From the IMG/VR virus record IMGVR_UViG_3300017763_003471, positions 118,592 through 138,591 of that record: DNA of 20,000 nucleotides. The stretch is one strand, 5' to 3'. Below, one piece after another: positions 533-19,051 of this stretch. Within the stretch, counting starts at the first letter, position 1, and each line of letters opens with the position of its first letter. Position numbers and translations under genes: made by a program. This DNA is from an uncultured virus (IMG/VR IMGVR_UViG_3300017763_003471) (taxonomy: Duplodnaviria; Heunggongvirae; Uroviricota; Caudoviricetes). The notes beneath the pieces were generated by a model. It ran no database searches and was not told where the DNA came from. It saw only the letters and a program-made list of their open reading frames with translations.

Positions 533-609
533 TGGCGCTTTCGGAAGGACTCGAACCCTCAACCTGCCGATTAGAAGTCGGCTGTTCTATCCAGTTGAAC
601 TACGAAAGC
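533..609 (-). tRNA. trnR: tRNA-Arg (anticodon UCU), CCA encoded
   Basis: Reverse complement GCTTTCG...GCCGA-CTTCTAA-TCGGC...GGTTCGAGTCC...CGAAAGCG-CCA folds as a cloverleaf. Confidence 0.96.
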
Positions 610-623
610 AATTATTGTGATAT

Positions 624-893
624 TTAAGATGGTGTAGGATTATGAAAATCCTCTTCATTAAGAACTACATCTTTCATTGGAACGACCACTGTAAAACCTC
701 CTGGGTCACGTCCATTGTCTTTGATTTCGTAAAGTTTATTTACACTATCTTGTGTAATAATAGTTCCAGTACGAGTTAGTTCTTTGATAGCAACGATAGG
801 CAAATCAGCCAAACTATACATGCCGCCGGGTCGACCAAATTCATCTACTGTAAATTCATATGTGTATGTGCATTCCATAATGTTTCCTTTCAC
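624..893 (-). CDS. Hypothetical protein between tRNA-Glu and tRNA-Arg
   Basis: ORF track 89 aa; true start probably MECTY... after AAGGA. Confidence 0.7.
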   Translation of the reverse strand: MKGNIMECTYTYEFTVDEFGRPGGMYSLADLPIVAIKELTRTGTIITQDSVNKLYEIKDNGRDPGGFTVVVPMKDVVLNEEDFHNPTPS

Positions 894-901
894 ATTTAAG
901 A

Positions 902-977
<76 letters not shown>

Positions 978-981
978 ATAT

Positions 982-1066
982 TGGTGCCTCCTCCCGGACT
1001 TGAACCGGGACGCCTTGAGGCGAGAGATTTTAAGTCTCTTGTGTCTACCTATTCCACCAAGGAGGC
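982..1066 (-). tRNA. trnL: tRNA-Leu (anticodon UAA), long variable arm, CCA encoded
   Basis: Reverse complement GCCTCCT...AGAGA-CTTAAAA-TCTCT-CGCCTCAAGGCG...GGTTCAAGTCC...AGGAGGCA-CCA. Confidence 0.96.
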
Positions 1067-1799: not shown

Positions 1800-2123
1800 T
1801 TATGAACCTACTGTCAACTCAACAAAGTCGCCTTCGTAGTTATATTCAAGTTGTTCAACATAAACGCCCCAATACCCACAAGCATCCATAAGATGTTGTG
1901 AAGCCTTAAGAACAGAAGGAACATCCCATTCACCGTTAACAACTTTAATTTTATGACCTGATGCCCATTGCATCATAAAGAAATCATCAGTATTCAAACG
2001 ATAGTCAGCCATATCAGTTCGCAATTCATATTCACCATCAGGGATACTCATTGCTTTTTTGGATTCACAATCGAATACCATACGATTTTCGTTAAGATTT
2101 GAATAGATTGTTTCGTTTGTCAT
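1800..2123 (-). CDS. Hypothetical protein (putative early gene)
   Basis: ORF track; directly downstream of promoter P1 with a GA-rich RBS. Confidence 0.75.
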   Translation of the reverse strand: MTNETIYSNLNENRMVFDCESKKAMSIPDGEYELRTDMADYRLNTDDFFMMQWASGHKIKVVNGEWDVPSVLKASQHLMDACGYWGVYVEQLEYNYEGDFVELTVGS

Positions 2124-2154
2124 AGTGATTCTCTTTCTCTCTGATTACTTAATT

Positions 2155-2182
2155 AATATAGCACGATTCGTGATATTGTCAA
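2155..2182 (-). promoter_or_regulatory. Sigma70-type early promoter P1 with GANTC in spacer
   Basis: TTGACA-ATATCACGAATCGTGC-TATATT on minus strand; member of a 5-copy family. Confidence 0.85.
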
Positions 2183-2185
2183 GTT

Positions 2186-2347
2186 TTATATAGCAAGTAT
2201 TAACTTCATTTCGTTAACAATATCTTTGTATGTTTGGATCTTTTTTTCAATCGCATACTTTTTCATTTTTACTGATGAAGTGTTACCAGCAAAAGTAGTT
2301 AGATATTTTTCTAACTTTTTGATTTCGTTTTCGTATTGTTCTATCAT
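2186..2347 (-). CDS. Hypothetical protein (53 aa, MIEQYENEIKKLEKYLTTFAG...)
   Basis: Translated by hand; lies between promoters P2 and P1 with a GAGAGAG RBS. Confidence 0.7.
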   Translation of the reverse strand: MIEQYENEIKKLEKYLTTFAGNTSSVKMKKYAIEKKIQTYKDIVNEMKLILAI

Positions 2348-2372
2348 TTTTCTCTCTCTTGATTATGTATTT

Positions 2373-2400
2373 AATATAACACGATTCGGGGATTTGTCAA
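2373..2400 (-). promoter_or_regulatory. Sigma70-type early promoter P2 with GANTC in spacer
   Basis: TTGACA-AATCCCCGAATCGTGT-TATATT. Confidence 0.85.
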
Positions 2401-3275
2401 GTTTTTAAGAACGTTTTTGCGATAATATCTTGGTATTTTATTCCAGGGTGACACGTAGGATTACTAATGTTATTTACGTCCCTGCCCCAATCTTTTAGGT
2501 GTGATAAATCTTTAAAATCAGATTGTTTTATCTTTAAGGCCATAAGCATTTTACTATCCCAATCATCTGAAAAGTTTTTATCTATGATATTGGATAATCG
2601 TTTTGTTTCTACATTATGATAATTACATAATTCTTTTATGTTATTATTAATTTCATTATAGTTATTGAGTGATAAAAACTCATCTTGTATTTGTCTATAA
2701 TCTTTTTTACCTACTCCATGAATTTTAGAAAGTTCATGTCCATCAGCTAAAAGTCTAGCATGAATCAAAATGTATTTGTCGTTAAATCTGTATTCAAATC
2801 TACCAGGCCACCAACCTAACATATATATTTTACTAGGTTTATATGTCGCATTCTCTAACCATGCTTTCATTATTCTGTGTGCAGTAAAAGGACCCCCACC
2901 ACCTACACCAAAATTCTTTACAGTAATTCCTGTTTCTTGTTCAATACGAGCAGGCCAAGAATATTCAGCAGGTACACCCATACCTTCAGTCCAACTACAA
3001 CCAAAACACCATATTTCATTTTCAGAATTTTCTAATTCATATTCTCTGTTTTTGTAATCTCTGAAACCGTAAGAGTTTTTAGTATAACCAAAATTTAAAA
3101 ATCTGTCTAATGTATATCCAAGTTGGTTTATACTAAATGAGTCAGACAGTGAATCATCATTTCTCATATGATCCACCATTACCTTTTCACTATCGTCAAA
3201 GTACTTTGTGTCGATATATGATTTAAGACCAGTAGATGTTAATTCTATGTTAATCGTCACGTTCGCCATATCCAT
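2397..3275 (-). CDS. SGNH/GDSL-hydrolase-like protein
   Basis: IWCFGCSWTEGMGV (GDS-like block), SWP, NFGVGGGG, C-terminal HPG; start uncertain because the longer ORF overlaps the ligase. Confidence 0.6.
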   Translation of the reverse strand: MDMANVTINIELTSTGLKSYIDTKYFDDSEKVMVDHMRNDDSLSDSFSINQLGYTLDRFLNFGYTKNSYGFRDYKNREYELENSENEIWCFGCSWTEGMGVPAEYSWPARIEQETGITVKNFGVGGGGPFTAHRIMKAWLENATYKPSKIYMLGWWPGRFEYRFNDKYILIHARLLADGHELSKIHGVGKKDYRQIQDEFLSLNNYNEINNNIKELCNYHNVETKRLSNIIDKNFSDDWDSKMLMALKIKQSDFKDLSHLKDWGRDVNNISNPTCHPGIKYQDIIAKTFLKT

Positions 3276-4389
3276 AATCGATAACAACTGGAAATCTTGG
3301 AATACCATCATTTGATAATTCAAAGTATCTACAAGTAGCCCAATTAGGAGTTTCAGCATTTAGAAGTTCTTTTAGTTTTGCTTGTGAACCTCTGATACCT
3401 GAACTAAACTGAGTACCATTAGAAAGTTGAAGATTAAATCTTTTTGCATAACCTGACCAGTTACCATTTCCTTCTTCAACACTTACTACTTTAAATTCTT
3501 CTGTAATGAATTCTTTTCTCTTTAAAAGATTTTTACTTCTCTTACATTCGTAAGCAGAATTTTGTCTTACCATTTGACCTTCATAACCTGCTTCTGTGTA
3601 CTCACCATACATCTTATCGATATCGGCAGTAGTATCAGTTTTAGCAGTTTCAACAATAACAATCTTACCAAGACCGTCAAGGTAATTACCTTCTACTGGT
3701 AAATGCTTTACTAAGAAATACATTCTATCAATGAAAGGCATATCAGGATTATCGGCATCAAACATATCATAAATGTGATACTCAACTAATTCTGCACTCT
3801 CGGCTATTTCTTCTGGTCTACACTTTACTTTTCTAACAAGTGAAACAATCTTTTGAAAATCTGATTTAAGTTCGTGATTGTATAGTTCACCGTCAAGTGT
3901 AATATTAGGATAATCTTTAACAAAGTTTTCTAATGCCTCTGCAATATGAGGACAACTATTAATAGGCTTACCACTTCTTGAATTCATACCATGTTTATTA
4001 ACTAAACATCTGATACCATCTAGTTTCGGTTGTGTGTAACCGCTAGTAACTGGCTTCTTTGTAAAATCATTAGCTAACATAGGTTTGAATAGTTCGTAAC
4101 TATCAACATCATCTATGTTTTCAAAATATTCTTTATCTGCTTTTTGGTCCCAACTAGATTGTGCTTCTGAGATAGCTTGGGTCTTAGCAGTTGTTCCGTT
4201 TGCTTTACCAACATTTTTAGCAATAGATAAATTCCATTCGCTAGTGACTTTCTGGCCATCAATTAATCCGGCAATAGTTCTAGTACCAGCAACATCATCA
4301 GAATCAAAACCGTATTCTACAGTCCAAATTCTTAATTTGCCTTTTGTATCTCTCTTATATAGACTTGCTAAACTTGTGATATTTTGCAT
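3250..4389 (-). CDS. lig: ATP-dependent DNA ligase
   Basis: Motifs QPKLDGIR (KxDG), LDGELY, YHIYD, YEGQMVR, LLKRK, PRFPV. Confidence 0.95.
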   Translation of the reverse strand: MQNITSLASLYKRDTKGKLRIWTVEYGFDSDDVAGTRTIAGLIDGQKVTSEWNLSIAKNVGKANGTTAKTQAISEAQSSWDQKADKEYFENIDDVDSYELFKPMLANDFTKKPVTSGYTQPKLDGIRCLVNKHGMNSRSGKPINSCPHIAEALENFVKDYPNITLDGELYNHELKSDFQKIVSLVRKVKCRPEEIAESAELVEYHIYDMFDADNPDMPFIDRMYFLVKHLPVEGNYLDGLGKIVIVETAKTDTTADIDKMYGEYTEAGYEGQMVRQNSAYECKRSKNLLKRKEFITEEFKVVSVEEGNGNWSGYAKRFNLQLSNGTQFSSGIRGSQAKLKELLNAETPNWATCRYFELSNDGIPRFPVVIDYGYGERDD

Positions 4390-4413
4390 ACATTTTCTCC
4401 TGATTATGTATAT

Positions 4414-4441
4414 ATAATAACACTAAATGCTATTTTGTCAA
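4414..4441 (-). promoter_or_regulatory. Sigma70-type promoter P3 upstream of ligase (no GANTC)
   Basis: TTGACA-AAATAGCATTTAGTGT-TATTAT followed by TACATAATCAGGAG. Confidence 0.8.
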
Positions 4442-4861
4442 GTTTTTTGCTTTTAATTTCTTGGATTTTTTAGCCGCGACCTGCTTTTCTTCCTTACGAT
4501 AAGCAGTGAGCATAGTTTCTTGTAAGTCAAATGCTTCCACTTCCCATGCACGTTCTAAATATGGAGTATCTGAACACTCAAATAATGGGTGTTCTTTTCG
4601 TACATCTTGCTTAATATGAACAAATTCGTGGAAAACACTAGTTAGAATATCGTCTTCTTTAAGACCTCGTCTAATTCGCATGATATATTCACGATATTCG
4701 TCACCGCTAACTACATCAGCATCACATTTGATATTCTTTTTGAGTTCGATATCTACTTCTATATGCTTGTGTCGAGGTAGAAGATAATCCTTGGCAAACC
4801 ATAAGGCCTTTATTACCAATTCTTTCTCTGACTTTTTCCCGCCTTTTATAGAATAGTACAT
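4430..4861 (-). CDS. Putative zinc metallopeptidase-like protein
   Basis: HEFVH (HExxH) plus downstream WEVEA. Confidence 0.7.
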   Translation of the reverse strand: MYYSIKGGKKSEKELVIKALWFAKDYLLPRHKHIEVDIELKKNIKCDADVVSGDEYREYIMRIRRGLKEDDILTSVFHEFVHIKQDVRKEHPLFECSDTPYLERAWEVEAFDLQETMLTAYRKEEKQVAAKKSKKLKAKNLTK

Positions 4862-4877
4862 ATTTCTCTCTCATCAA

Positions 4878-4885
4878 TATTTATC
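4878..4885 (-). promoter_or_regulatory. T4-like late promoter candidate (GATAAATA)
   Basis: Resembles TATAAATA; intergenic, just upstream of the RBS. Confidence 0.5.
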
Positions 4886-4943
4886 GGATATTCTTAGGAT
4901 TAAGTGCGTAGATTATTGTGATTTTTCTTCGCAGTATGTATAT

Positions 4944-4971
4944 ACTATAACACGATTCGTGAATCTGTCAA
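4944..4971 (-). promoter_or_regulatory. Sigma70-type early promoter P4 with two GANTC sites
   Basis: TTGACA-GATTCACGAATCGTGT-TATAGT. Confidence 0.85.
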
Positions 4972-4973
4972 GT

Positions 4974-5456
4974 TTATGTAGTGTATTCGAAATTCTGAGT
5001 ATTGTCGTTGATACCAATTTGCTTTGCACCATTACTGATATGAAAGTGTGTAGCCATTGGTGTGAGAGGAGATAATGTAACCACTCTATTGATTCCTCTA
5101 TCTTTAGCATAAGAAATCATTTTGTTAACTATCTCTTTACCAGCACCTCTTTTTCTTGACCATACTGTATATGCAATAGCAACTTTTTCATCTTTTTTTA
5201 AATATGCAAGTTCACTCATCATATCTAATTCTCTTACACTTGTTGGAACGTCATTCGTATATGCAATACAAATAATTGCTTCAATATTATTCTCGTATTG
5301 TAATCCGTAAATTTTACGCCCATTTGTAATTCGCCAGCCCAAAGTTAACTCAGGCCTAACTGGATCTTCGGATACATCTATATCATCTAACTCTACTAAT
5401 TCTGTTCCTTTGACCCATCTAAAATAATCATTGATTTTATCTTTTACAATTTTCAC
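4974..5456 (-). CDS. Conserved phage protein, possible GNAT-like fold
   Basis: IAYTVWSRKRGAG (acetyl-CoA-binding-like RxGxG) and VVTLSP. Confidence 0.5.
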   Translation of the reverse strand: MKIVKDKINDYFRWVKGTELVELDDIDVSEDPVRPELTLGWRITNGRKIYGLQYENNIEAIICIAYTNDVPTSVRELDMMSELAYLKKDEKVAIAYTVWSRKRGAGKEIVNKMISYAKDRGINRVVTLSPLTPMATHFHISNGAKQIGINDNTQNFEYTT

Positions 5457-14569: not shown

Positions 14570-14598
14570 ATTATATACTATCGAGGTTCAGAAGTCAA
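14570..14598 (-). promoter_or_regulatory. Sigma70-type promoter overlapping the putA stop
   Basis: TTGACT-N17-TATAAT upstream of the PRTase RBS AAGGA. Confidence 0.7.
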
Positions 14599-17424
14599 TA
14601 ACAAAGTGTCTCCGCCGATAGCAGAAGTGTTGATGCTTATGTGTTTCTCCCACACATAAGGAGTTAGATAATTAGGACCACCTGCTTTAGGTCCAGTACC
14701 ACTTAAACCGTATCCACCGAATGGTTGAGTCTCTACAACTGCACCTATTTGGTCTCTGTTTATATAAATGTTACCTATCTTCATTTTCTTAGCTATGTTA
14801 TCATAGAACTTAGTTACACGTGAATGTATACTTAATGTTAGTCCAAATTTACTTTCATTTATAAAAGATACTATTTCATCTAATTCATCTTTTTCATAAA
14901 CATAAACATGCAACAATGGGCCAAATATTTCTTCATCAAAATACTTTTTGTAGTCTGTTACAAGATAAGCACTTGGTGGGATAATTAATTTTGGTAACTC
15001 TTTTCCATTACGAGATTTCGTTGCAATTAATGTTTCGTTTTCTTCAAGTACTGCAATTCTTTCTTGTATCTTTGCATATGCCACACCATCAATAACACGT
15101 GATACGTCTGTATTTAAATCATCTGCATTACCAAGTGATATTACTTTAATTTTATGTTTTAACATATTAATAATTTCTTCACTATTTTCTTTTTGAAGAA
15201 ATAAAAATCTAGTTGCTGAACATCTTTGTCCTGCACTATCGAATGCACCATATGATACATCTTCGACTAACTGTTCAGGTAAACAAGTAGAATCTGCAAT
15301 CATAGAATTTATACCACCTGTTTCTGCAATGAAAGGTATAATAGGCCCATCACGTTCAGCAATAAGCCTCTGTATAGTCTTAGCACTCTTATGAGAGCCT
15401 GTGAACGTTATACCTGATATACGTTCATCTTTGATTGCTTTAGAAGCCTCTTCAATATCAGGGTCACACATACGTAGTGCATCTATTGGTACACCAACGT
15501 GATGCATTGCACCCAATACAACTTTTGCAATTTCTAGGGTCTGTGGTGCGGGTTTTGCCAATACGGTATTTCCTGTAATCAATGCGGCTACGATTGGTCC
15601 TAAGAAAATTGCATAAGGAAAATTCCAAGGTGCTATTACCATCCAAGTTCCTCTAGGATTAAAAACTGTAGAATTATATTCACCGGTATAACCTATTTTG
15701 ATATTTTCTCCATACATTAATTCAGCTTGTTCTACGTAGTAACGAATAAAATCAACTGACTCTCTAATTTCTGCAACTGCATTTGGATATGTTTTAAAAG
15801 AATATTTTACTAATCTGTTTGCCGCAGGAATCATTTCTTCTTCTAAACTATCTGCACATGCTAGTAGAATTTTCTTTCTATGTTCAAATGTTGTATTTGC
15901 CCATTGATTTTGATAGTTGTATAAATGTTCTATACTATCTTCCACTGAAAGTAATTCTTCATCATGGTGAGGGTGAACCGCAGAGTCTAACATATAATCA
16001 ACCATAGCTGGATCAGTTAAATCATATCCTTTACTATTCTTTCTTCCAGGATATAAATCTTTCCATGACTTAAGTGATTTCTTTTTCTTTTTAACTTCTT
16101 TAAAAGGATCTACAACTTCATTTGTATGAACAAAACTAGTGTTAGCACCATTCTCTAATAAACGTCTTATTAGATATGCTAATAAATCTTTATACTCACC
16201 GACTGGTGCATATACTCTGACTTTCGTATCTCCTACTATCTGACTGAATAAACTATCACCCATTCCGTAAAGTTTCTGAAATTCATATTCTTGCTTACTA
16301 CATTTACCAACACATTGTATTGCTGAAACTGTATATGGATTATGTGTAGCATATGCAGTTTTCAATCTTTCACTATGCATCAGTTTTTTAGTACATGCTA
16401 GATAAGATATGTCTGTATTCTCTTTTCTTGTAAATACTGGATAATCTAGTCCTTCTTGTTGTGAATACTTTATCTCAGTATCCCAATATGCGCCTTTAAC
16501 AAGCCGTATAACGAGTTTGGCGCTACTATGCTCTGCTATTGTCTCTAACGTATCAATAACCCAAAAAGCACGTTTCTGATAAGCCTGTAGAGCAAATCCT
16601 ATAGTAAAATCTTTAAATTTGTATGTTTTAAGCATTTCTTCAAGTATCATAATGCTTATATCGAGCCTACGTGCCTCTTCTGCATCAATAAACATTGTAG
16701 TGTTGTTTTCTTCGCATACTCTAGCTATAGCGGCTAATTTAGGTACTAGTGTGTGTAAAACGTCTTTGTGGTTCTTTAATTCGTATCTAGGGTGTATTGC
16801 ACTAAGTTTTATAGATATGGATTCTTTTGACTTAATAGCCGCATCTAAATATCTTTCATAGTATAAATTTGCATCTTCCCAATTTGTTGCGGCCTCTCCT
16901 AGCATATCAAATGAATATGCATAACCTTTTTTCTTATTTTTTATTGCAGTTTCTATGTTGCTACCCATAACAAATAAAGTACCCATTTGTTTTACCATAG
17001 TCTTTGTCATTTCTCTTACTGCTGGCCAGCCTATTCTTCCTACTATACCTTCATATGCTGAAAGCATTTGTGCCTGAGTTAATGCAATACTGGCCGCTTT
17101 AGAATAAAAACTATTATTAGATAATTTATACCATTCTGCATTTGATAATTTATCTTTGATAAGTTTGTCTTGTGTTTCTTTGTCTGGTGTACGTAAAAGA
17201 GATTCACAAAGAGTCATAAGTGCCATGCCCTCAGGAGCACTCATATCATATGACTTCATTATATGAGTCAAATAATGTTCATCGGTAAGTTTAGATTGAA
17301 TGGTTTCTGCCTCAGCCATTACTGACCGAAGGACTTCACTAGATGCCTTAGATGCAATTAGAAGTTTTGGAACAATTTCTAATTCATCGGATCTATAATA
17401 ATCATTATGTGGATAACACTTCAT
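14578..17424 (-). CDS. putA: Bifunctional proline dehydrogenase / P5C (glutamate semialdehyde) dehydrogenase
   Basis: PRODH motifs YSFDMLGEAA, SIKLSA, IDAEE, RLVKGAYWD, ATHN, YLIRRLLENGAN; ALDH motifs PWNFP, FTGS, ETGG, GQRCSA, EEIFGP, QPFGG..LSGTGPKAGG. Confidence 0.96.
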   Translation of the reverse strand: MKCYPHNDYYRSDELEIVPKLLIASKASSEVLRSVMAEAETIQSKLTDEHYLTHIMKSYDMSAPEGMALMTLCESLLRTPDKETQDKLIKDKLSNAEWYKLSNNSFYSKAASIALTQAQMLSAYEGIVGRIGWPAVREMTKTMVKQMGTLFVMGSNIETAIKNKKKGYAYSFDMLGEAATNWEDANLYYERYLDAAIKSKESISIKLSAIHPRYELKNHKDVLHTLVPKLAAIARVCEENNTTMFIDAEEARRLDISIMILEEMLKTYKFKDFTIGFALQAYQKRAFWVIDTLETIAEHSSAKLVIRLVKGAYWDTEIKYSQQEGLDYPVFTRKENTDISYLACTKKLMHSERLKTAYATHNPYTVSAIQCVGKCSKQEYEFQKLYGMGDSLFSQIVGDTKVRVYAPVGEYKDLLAYLIRRLLENGANTSFVHTNEVVDPFKEVKKKKKSLKSWKDLYPGRKNSKGYDLTDPAMVDYMLDSAVHPHHDEELLSVEDSIEHLYNYQNQWANTTFEHRKKILLACADSLEEEMIPAANRLVKYSFKTYPNAVAEIRESVDFIRYYVEQAELMYGENIKIGYTGEYNSTVFNPRGTWMVIAPWNFPYAIFLGPIVAALITGNTVLAKPAPQTLEIAKVVLGAMHHVGVPIDALRMCDPDIEEASKAIKDERISGITFTGSHKSAKTIQRLIAERDGPIIPFIAETGGINSMIADSTCLPEQLVEDVSYGAFDSAGQRCSATRFLFLQKENSEEIINMLKHKIKVISLGNADDLNTDVSRVIDGVAYAKIQERIAVLEENETLIATKSRNGKELPKLIIPPSAYLVTDYKKYFDEEIFGPLLHVYVYEKDELDEIVSFINESKFGLTLSIHSRVTKFYDNIAKKMKIGNIYINRDQIGAVVETQPFGGYGLSGTGPKAGGPNYLTPYVWEKHISINTSAIGGDTLLLTSEPR

Positions 17425-17875: not shown

Positions 17876-18055
17876 TTATAGTTTTTGAGGCTCAAGCATA
17901 TCAGGTTCTAAATCCATTGAACTATGAACATTCCAGACTTCTCTTTCATGTATCAACGCATAATGTTTCGCTTCTGATTCTGTCATTAATTTCATTTCGT
18001 TATTGCCATCAGGATGGTCAATAAGATATAAAAAATGTGCTTTCTTTTTACTCAT
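17876..18055 (-). CDS. Hypothetical protein (59 aa, MSKKKAHFLYLIDHPDG...)
   Basis: Translated by hand; start overlaps the upstream gene end. Confidence 0.65.
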   Translation of the reverse strand: MSKKKAHFLYLIDHPDGNNEMKLMTESEAKHYALIHEREVWNVHSSMDLEPDMLEPQKL

Positions 18056-18380
18056 CTTCTTCGCCTAATACTTCCTTGACACAATCAAGTGCTTCCTCAT
18101 CGAAACCACTTACATGCCATTTATATATTCCATCAGGAATGTTATCTTCATCCCACTCATCTATTTTGTGTATAGTTGCCGCAATGTAATCAACTTCTTC
18201 GCTATACCCCTCAGTATCATGAGGTACTTTGAATTGTAAGACCCATTCAGCATCAGACATATCACTACCTATAGTAGGATCGCCAAATGTGTCAACTAAT
18301 CTTTGGTATGTTGTAGATACATACCCTTGAAGTTCAACACCTTCAACATCTATCATATCGTCATTTTCGAACTCGTACAT
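18048..18380 (-). CDS. Conserved phage hypothetical protein
   Basis: LQGYV.TTY..LV..FG.P...EW...WH; AAGGAG RBS and promoter P5. Confidence 0.75.
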   Translation of the reverse strand: MYEFENDDMIDVEGVELQGYVSTTYQRLVDTFGDPTIGSDMSDAEWVLQFKVPHDTEGYSEEVDYIAATIHKIDEWDEDNIPDGIYKWHVSGFDEEALDCVKEVLGEEDE

Positions 18381-18403: not shown

Positions 18404-18431
18404 AATATAGCACCTTTTTGTATAATGTCAA
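18404..18431 (-). promoter_or_regulatory. Sigma70-type promoter P5 (no GANTC)
   Basis: TTGACA-TTATACAAAAAGGTGC-TATATT. Confidence 0.8.
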
Positions 18432-19051
18432 GTTTTAATTAGGCAAACCTTTACGTCACTATATTTGTCTTTGTCGATTTCAATATTATGTTCACCATAT
18501 TCTTCTGTTAACCATTCTTCATTGAAATCTTCCCATTCACCATTTCTTTTAACGAATTCATTTAATAGTTTATTTTCTGCTTCAATATAATGCATCATAT
18601 GATTATCATCTACATACCATGTATATTTTGGATAGTATATATTCCAACCACCTGCTTCATGCCACCAATCAAAGCATTCTTGGTTTCCTCTTTTGACTAT
18701 TAGTATCTGTGAATTTTCTATATTTTGATTTAACCAATCTAAACCGTAAGCAAATTGGTGACACTTAATCATCTTTGGTTTTGCTGAAATGGGTTCTATA
18801 AATCCCACATCACATGCTTTCTTAAATCCTATGATATCATTATTGTAATTTCTTTCAAGACTATGAAAGTTTTGCCCTAATTCCATATGTGGACCCCAAT
18901 AGGCTCCTCTATGACCTGAGAATTCTCCATGCTTGTAAACTCTCCAGTCTGTTTCATCTGAATTGTTATAATTGAAGTTCTCTGAAATGATTTGTGCAAC
19001 ACCAGACCATCTTGATCCTGGTGCACCTGTTAAGAAAGTATAATCATGCAT
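18428..19051 (-). CDS. Sulfotransferase/P-loop-like protein
   Basis: FLTGAPGSRWS, MIKCH, ILIVKR resemble sulfotransferase PAPS-binding blocks; start trimmed to MHDY. Confidence 0.5.
   Translation of the reverse strand: MHDYTFLTGAPGSRWSGVAQIISENFNYNNSDETDWRVYKHGEFSGHRGAYWGPHMELGQNFHSLERNYNNDIIGFKKACDVGFIEPISAKPKMIKCHQFAYGLDWLNQNIENSQILIVKRGNQECFDWWHEAGGWNIYYPKYTWYVDDNHMMHYIEAENKLLNEFVKRNGEWEDFNEEWLTEEYGEHNIEIDKDKYSDVKVCLIKT

Follow-up and report, generated by a model that had tools for sequence, protein, structure and literature searches.

The window analysed here, a stretch of 20,000 nucleotides from the uncultured virus IMGVR_UViG_3300017763_003471, is the terminal 20 kb of a 138,591-bp IMG/VR record that is rated 38% complete. 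Its G+C content is 33-37% and almost every long open reading frame (ORF) lies on the minus strand. The window carries five copies of a promoter cassette, P1 to P5, and in three of them a GA(A/T)TC site (GAWTC, called the box below) is located in the spacer between the -35 and -10 hexamers. Our results show that this box is a conserved, strongly selected, asymmetric promoter element at about -20. All five promoters are found where the initial annotation of this DNA, made from the letters alone, had placed them, and all are on the minus strand, as are nearly all genes of the window. By their sequence they are sigma70-type extended -10 promoters of the form AAAAC-TTGACA-N16-TGn-TATAWT. The GTGY that had been pointed out ahead of the -10 box is present in 5/5 and corresponds to the TGn of the extended -10 element. 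CGAATCG does occupy one spacer position (offset 6-12) in P1, P2 and P4, and the second GANTC ascribed to P4 was found directly after its -35 box. The promoters and the genes downstream of them are the following (aa, amino acids):

2155..2187 (core 2155-2182), minus strand: promoter P1, AAAAC TTGACA ATATCACGAATCGTGC TATATT; -35 TTGACA at 2177-2182, 16-nt spacer, TGn, -10 TATATT at 2155-2160, GAWTC box at 2165-2169 within CGAATCG
1800..2123, minus strand: ORF of 107 aa downstream of P1, predicted transcription start about 25 nt ahead of its start codon
2373..2405 (core 2373-2400), minus strand: promoter P2, AAAAC TTGACA AATCCCCGAATCGTGT TATATT; GAWTC box at 2383-2387
2186..2347, minus strand: ORF of 53 aa downstream of P2
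4414..4446 (core 4414-4441), minus strand: promoter P3, AAAAC TTGACA AAATAGCATTTAGTGT TATTAT; no GAWTC box in the spacer
3250..4389, minus strand: ATP-dependent DNA ligase gene downstream of P3 (phrog_114, E 6e-67)
4944..4976 (core 4944-4971), minus strand: promoter P4, TAAAC TTGACA GATTCACGAATCGTGT TATAGT; main GAWTC box at 4954-4958
4961-4965, minus strand: second GANTC of P4, immediately after the -35 box
4430..4861, minus strand: ORF of 143 aa downstream of P4 (phrog_16532), leader of about 76 nt
18404..18436 (core 18404-18431), minus strand: promoter P5, AAAAC TTGACA TTATACAAAAAGGTGC TATATT; no GAWTC box in the spacer
18048..18380, minus strand: ORF of 110 aa downstream of P5

P2 overlaps the 3' end of an upstream 320-aa ORF. 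The number of such sites is far above expectation. TTGACA-N15-18-TATNNT has 7 matches in the window as compared to 0.76 expected, and 0/200 shuffles reach 7; the two matches in addition to P1-P5 (1789-1817 and 6439-6465) lie inside coding sequence, have no AAAAC lead and fall outside the promoter family. GAWTCRTGYTAT occurs three times (0.05 expected; 0/200 shuffles reach 3), and GANTC alone is not enriched (39 vs 54 expected). Contigs from RNA libraries cover positions 1700-2500, including the 107-aa ORF, in 4/4 runs, which is not proof of transcription; carry-over of DNA into these libraries is possible, and regions without coverage carry no information. Ends of these contigs near 2154 are uninformative about the transcription start because the contigs break at the repeated cassette. 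In related strains, RNA-library contigs hold P1 variants that have no GAWTC box (window 2111-2186, 2162/2164); one retains GTG and one has lost GTG too.

The record that contains the window is 99.96% identical, in opposite orientation, to G001, a complete record of 342,607 bp that has terminal repeats. Near-identical DNA occurs in 14 DNA runs; these come from 9 studies whose labels read marine, seawater or viral metagenome. The virus bearing the promoters is an uncultured, cosmopolitan marine jumbo phage of about 343 kb. Promoters were collected in its genome with a pattern that is independent of the box, to avoid circularity. The pattern AACTTGACA-N16/17-TANNNT has 25 matches on one strand of G001 and 0 on the other, and the reversed-pattern control gave 0. 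Four further large relatives contain 12, 12, 5 and 9 cassette matches, all of them one-stranded. A scan of IMG/VR for TTGACA-N7-GAATCGTGYTAT yielded at least 135 loci, and these share about 60 bp, from the AAAAC lead through the ATACATAAT leader to the ribosome-binding site. In most of the G001 copies the start codon lies 17-33 nt past the predicted transcription start. Judged by these features, the cassette copies are real promoters, co-oriented with their downstream genes and having short leaders. The genes they drive are mostly small and include an ATPase, an HNH-like protein, an endolysin-like protein and the ligase, which is served by the box-free P3. The early timing assumed in the initial annotation can be inferred from this pattern but is no result in itself. 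A full-text search of the literature for GAATCGTG returned unrelated primer matches only.

The initial annotation had named genome-wide enrichment of the box at this spacer offset as a test of its idea, and the enrichment is very strong. Specifically, GA(A/T)TC is located in the spacer of 18/25 cassette promoters of G001. Ten related records contain 84 distinct cores and GANTC is found at spacer offset 6-9 in 55 of them, a fraction that is somewhat inflated because each of the ten records was chosen for holding at least one box. At a GANTC background of 0.0018 per position this enrichment has a binomial p of ~3e-96. Most of the boxes (44/55) are at offset 7 of a 16-bp spacer.

The sequence of the box follows strict rules. 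At the middle base, 48 of the 55 boxes have A and 7 have T; G and C do not occur. The 5' flank is C in 37, A in 16 and T in 2 boxes, and the 3' flank is G in 32, A in 22 and T in 1, giving the flank consensus M-GAWTC-R, which is Y-GAWTC-K on the opposite strand. YGAKTCK is matched on one strand by 54/55 boxes, as compared to 161/615 (26%) of all GANTC sites in G001. If the seventh base after the -10 box is taken as the transcription start, the box centres fall at -19 (47), -20 (7) and -18 (1), and there is a weaker second peak at -26 (10). The distance of the box from either hexamer varies by +/-1. Its information content is that of the -35 and -10 hexamers, and the seven spacer bases left of it are variable. 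Comparison of orthologous promoters whose downstream genes are 66-93% identical gives the same picture: the box is mostly kept, the left spacer varies and the W flips between A and T.

Box-free cassette copies (e.g. G001 125242 and 324276, the latter being P5) often have an A- or T-tract before GTG (AAAAAGGTG, GTTTTGTG). Promoters of the Pelagibacter phage HTVC008M have TTTTATGATA at the same place. The tract may be an alternative spacer element.

Regarding the phage itself, the genes that it carries are indicative of a large, lytic virus infecting a Gram-negative host. The replication genes include a T4-type DNA polymerase with clamp loader and a DNA ligase; further genes code for MazG, PhoH, a GroES-like protein, Rz-like spanins, many radical-SAM enzymes and a PutA-like protein. 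Among cultured phages, Sinorhizobium phage Phosso has the most similar DNA polymerase (48%); that of Agrobacterium phage Atu_ph07 comes next (45%), and Rak2-like enterobacterial jumbo phages rank behind both (~43%). By megablast and blastn, neither the window nor the cassette had a relative among cultured phages. Other features of the window and of the phage genome (record G000) are:

Window 533-1066, minus strand: tRNA cluster Arg-TCT, Glu-TTC, Leu-TAA
Window 14578-17424, minus strand: PutA-like protein of 948 aa with proline dehydrogenase, aldehyde dehydrogenase and PutA arm domains, 37% identical to bacterial putA
G000 46686-48261 and 78194-78781: QueE-like, GTP cyclohydrolase and QueC-like genes
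G000 51129-52421, minus strand: anion transporter-like ORF, 37-53% identical to bacterial sulfate-permease-type anion transporters
G000 54784-55329, minus strand: methyltransferase of 181 aa with an NPPY motif (phrog_799), the only methyltransferase candidate of the phage, with relatives in many unrelated phages

There are 11 tRNAs in the whole phage genome. As an auxiliary metabolic gene of a phage, the PutA-like gene is unusual. Radical-SAM-like ORFs number at least nine in the phage genome, and several form one block at G000 12-23 kb. The PHROGs label 'tail protein' (phrog_27398) on the ORF at G000 51129-52421 looks wrong in view of its identity to transporters. The QueE-like, GTP cyclohydrolase and QueC-like genes suggest 7-deazaguanine chemistry and possibly modification of DNA. 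The 181-aa enzyme could methylate the DNA of the phage itself.

An alphaproteobacterium is the probable host, in agreement with the host class that the initial annotation had presupposed. The complete genome contains a permuted (two-piece) alpha-type transfer-messenger RNA (tmRNA) gene with the tag ANDNYQPEMAMAA (G001 281167-281530, outside the window), scoring 122.6 bits against RF01849 (gathering score 50), and the same gene is present in a second, distinct relative (G002). The RF01849 alpha_tmRNA model was also run against 14 control genomes and Caulobacter was the only match. This tmRNA points to an alphaproteobacterial host and is the strongest clue to the host that we obtained. The infection of Rhizobiaceae by Phosso and Atu_ph07, the relatives by DNA polymerase, agrees with the tmRNA clue. 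Caulobacter, in which the annotation had envisaged reporter assays, is not indicated as the host. A BLAST search of the tmRNA against 401 alphaproteobacterial genomes matched the conserved core only and therefore gives no finer host resolution. The phage has no tRNA-His, which makes the alphaproteobacterial tRNA-His signature unusable, and a marine jumbo-phage survey gives no host for this group in its available text (PMC9123017). The candidate host class does possess GcrA: it scored above the cut-off in 257/401 sampled alphaproteobacterial genomes, including several of 0.9-1.4 Mb; this count includes the unpublished genomes G076 and G276, and without both it is at most 255/399.

Two other lines on the host were considered and rejected. 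The cassette scan of 185,579 bacterial species genomes gave one match, in a genome labelled Alphaproteobacteria. We do not use it as host evidence, as about one match is estimated to occur by chance, the region is not phage-like and there is no other such box in that genome. A Gram-positive host, suggested by the 35% G+C, was discarded since the Rz-like spanins, the alpha-type tmRNA and the relatives point elsewhere.

Several short words are avoided in the phage genome. The observed/expected ratio of GAWTC in G001 is 0.60 (rank 28-29 of 1024 pentamers) and that of GASTC is 0.88; for GAWTC the ratio is 0.51-0.66 in 9/10 related records. The density of GANTC in G001 is 3.24 per kb in intergenic and 1.72 per kb in coding DNA. 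GCWGC (GCAGC/GCTGC) is wholly absent from the window (0 vs 12 expected) and from G001 (0 vs ~208 expected per word). Its count is also 0 in the relatives G002, G009, G013 and G020 and in a 20-kb part of G011, and it is at 1.11 of expectation in G010. Other avoided words in G001 are GATC (0.25), CGCG (0.27) and GAGCT (0.14), as well as AGCT and GGCC. The depletion of GCWGC, GATC, CGCG and the like looks like strong restriction-site avoidance that varies among relatives.

What does the box do? Previously, Haakonsen et al. (2015) have given TGATTCG as the consensus of GcrA, with the broader form YGAKTCK, and have found that methylation sites within the regulon are 'narrowly centered around -20', with another class at +2 to +30 (PMC4647560). 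Wu et al. (2023) place GcrA boxes in the spacer at -20 +/- 1 and -30 +/- 2, and in their cryo-EM complex a monomeric GcrA DNA-binding domain sits on the spacer box (PMC9976885). According to Hiraoka et al., the CcrM homologues of SAR11 and of one Rhizobiales genome methylate GAWTC and not GASTC, and GAWTC, not GASTC, is depleted in these genomes (PMC8919816). Methylation of GANTC has been reported for Pelagibacter by Seong et al., who also describe this motif as depleted in roughly half of the pelagiphages (PMC9516812). The phage box matches these published features in its motif, position, asymmetry, W-only rule and depletion. We consider a methylation-reading site of the GcrA/CcrM type to be the best single explanation of the box; it is unproven, and we hold it tentatively, its chances being a little short of even. 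The initial annotation had proposed that a subset of the promoters is wired to an alphaproteobacterial CcrM/GcrA system. That proposal is supported in part: the enrichment, the probable host class, the fit to YGAKTCK and the position speak for it, and its option of phage-encoded gcrA or ccrM genes finds no support in the complete genome.

In the mechanism that we favour, the transcription starts, the methylation, the identity of the reader, the effect on transcription and the early timing are all inferred. Host RNA polymerase with the primary sigma factor would read the perfect TTGACA, the 16-bp spacer, the extended -10 element RTGn and TATAWT. The GA(A/T)TC box at about -19/-20 would be a CcrM-type N6-adenine methylation site, read in the spacer by a monomeric, sigma70-bound GcrA-type cofactor from the alphaproteobacterial host. 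Whether a promoter fires would be governed by the methylation state of the phage DNA, by the cell-cycle state of the host or by both, and the box-free cassette copies (P3, P5) would be exempt from this control.

A stricter version is conceivable in which the boxes at -20, by means of host CcrM and GcrA, restrict the firing of a defined set of genes to methylated DNA, and replication, by making unmethylated copies, switches the promoters off. We regard this version as somewhat unlikely. If it is true, the template would be the parental genome as packaged, or else DNA inside a host that has reached the right stage of its cell cycle, the phage would possess a built-in early-to-later switch together with a sensor of host state, and the host would be a GAWTC-methylating marine alphaproteobacterium.

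Reading of the box by a GcrA/CcrM-type system would make this the first phage promoter family wired to GcrA/CcrM; among the titles listed by our literature search on GcrA, phage, GANTC and early genes, none dealt with phage promoters, and a published scan of phages for a GcrA motif was negative. It would also open a concrete, inexpensive way to test epigenetic timing in a marine phage that is abundant and uncultured, and the alpha-type tmRNA together with the GAWTC rules would serve as a host clue for the jumbo-phage group. Even without a role for methylation, the cassette is a well-defined regulatory element that can serve to map one transcription class across many virus contigs.

It is important to note that a number of observations weigh against the GcrA/CcrM explanation. 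The promoters are near-consensus, with a perfect -35 box and an extended -10 element, and may need no activator. GANTC is absent from the 3' part of the spacer (offset 6 onward) in 29/84 cassette cores, and the box is sometimes lost or gained between orthologous promoters. The region +2..+30, where the second class of GcrA sites would lie, shows no enrichment and holds scattered single sites only, and the position of the box relative to the start rests on assumed transcription starts. The R at -16 and the TG beside the box belong to the extended -10 element, which is another explanation for part of the motif. In the complete phage genome, which the initial annotation had considered as a possible source of the system, there is no match to the GcrA profile (PF07750); the best CcrM-family match (PF01555), located within a radical-SAM-like ORF, has 16.1 bits where the cut-off is 26.7. 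No Dam-family match exceeds the cut-off either. With neither gcrA nor ccrM in the phage, the reader and the methylase would have to come from the host. Since several other short palindromes are avoided far more strongly, the GAWTC depletion may be ordinary restriction avoidance. Three cultured alphaproteobacterial phages lack the box: Atu_ph07 and Phosso have GANTC at offset 6-9 in 0/25 promoter sites, and Pelagibacter phage HTVC008M has the box in 0/13. A published GcrA-motif scan of alphaproteobacterial phages, in the available text of that work, gave no signal (PMC9437464).

The box could instead be an element that acts independently of methylation, which is a serious possibility, though one that we put clearly below even chances. 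It could be a spacer contact of the polymerase (sigma region 3 or the beta' zipper beside the extended -10 element) that raises promoter strength, or the site of another sequence-specific factor, a phage or host protein such as a monomeric shut-off factor for this promoter class. The block adjoins the extended -10 element and is as informative as the two hexamers of promoters that are already near-consensus. Early promoters of T4 and T5 also have conservation beyond the two hexamers. Moreover, the W-only middle with constrained flanks is more specific than the GANTC of CcrM, as a sequence-specific reader would give, and both the missing phage gcrA and ccrM and the box-free promoters of Atu_ph07, Phosso and HTVC008M fit such an element. 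However, it leaves several coincidences unexplained, namely the fit of 54/55 boxes to YGAKTCK, their location at -20, the clue to an alphaproteobacterial host and the depletion specific to GAWTC. A fixed contact with polymerase would also tolerate poorly the shifts of the box by one position. In an alphaproteobacterial genome with plentiful TTGACA-N16/17-TANNNT sites the box is present in 1/56, that one being the site by which the genome was found; strong promoters in that genome therefore do not generally carry the box.

CcrM-type methylation could also act without GcrA, if N6-methyladenine in the spacer directly alters polymerase binding or DNA melting. Transcription would then differ between parental (methylated) and new (hemimethylated or unmethylated) genomes of the phage, as is known from Dam (GATC) sites, which modulate some IS10, P1 and E. 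coli promoters. The specificity for GAWTC, its depletion and the alphaproteobacterial host clue are consistent with this, as are the GAWTC-specific CcrM homologues described in marine alphaproteobacteria (PMC8919816). Such a mechanism explains neither why the flanks match the extended motif of GcrA nor why the box shares the -20 position of GcrA boxes, and we consider it improbable.

That the box has no function and was carried along by duplication of one cassette is very unlikely. The conservation of the cassette over ~60 bp including the ATACATAAT leader, and the loss of the box in some orthologues, speak for such a carry-over; however, within the same promoters the seven left spacer bases vary freely and GAWTC is nearly invariant, and this is so even between records in which the identity of the downstream genes is only 66-93%. 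Finally, the initial annotation had noted that the CACGAATCGTG inverted repeat, a perfect 11-bp palindrome in P1 and P4, could be the operator of a dimeric phage repressor, but this is largely refuted and we give it next to no weight: among the 44 standard boxes the arms are complementary in 6/44 (3-nt arms) or 7/44 (2-nt arms) and the commonest left arm is AGC, not CAC, so the flanking palindrome is not conserved and a dimeric operator is unlikely; the asymmetric flanks fit a monomeric reader and not a dimer.

Taking the GcrA/CcrM-type site as the preferred explanation, the closest known system is the set of GcrA boxes of Caulobacter crescentus, which likewise lie in the -35/-10 spacer at about -20, fit YGAKTCK, are asymmetric and occur in a GANTC-depleted genome (PMC4647560, PMC9976885). 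The phage boxes differ in that they sit on a phage and not on a chromosome, in near-consensus promoters, have only W as the middle base and are not accompanied by the +2..+30 class of sites; their methylation, their reader and their effect are putative.

Alphaproteobacterial phages are known to use host cell-cycle regulators, as shown by CtrA boxes, a GcrA homologue in PhiCbK and CcrM analogues in Sinorhizobium phages, and the phage described here would resemble them in being tied to a host circuit through cis sites or borrowed regulators (PMC9437464). The difference is that here the putative GcrA-type sites lie within the core promoter and the phage has neither GcrA nor a CcrM-family enzyme. 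The Dam-sensitive promoters of IS10, P1 and E. coli are similar in having a short methylation site fixed inside the core promoter, but the motif, the enzyme family and the host class are other ones, and Dam sites overlap the -10 or -35 box and not the spacer. With the early promoters of T4 and T5 the cassette shares the presence of many copies of a strong host-sigma promoter with conserved lead, spacer and leader, all in one direction. Unlike in those promoters, the conserved spacer block of the phage cassette is a known methylation motif at the known position of a cofactor.

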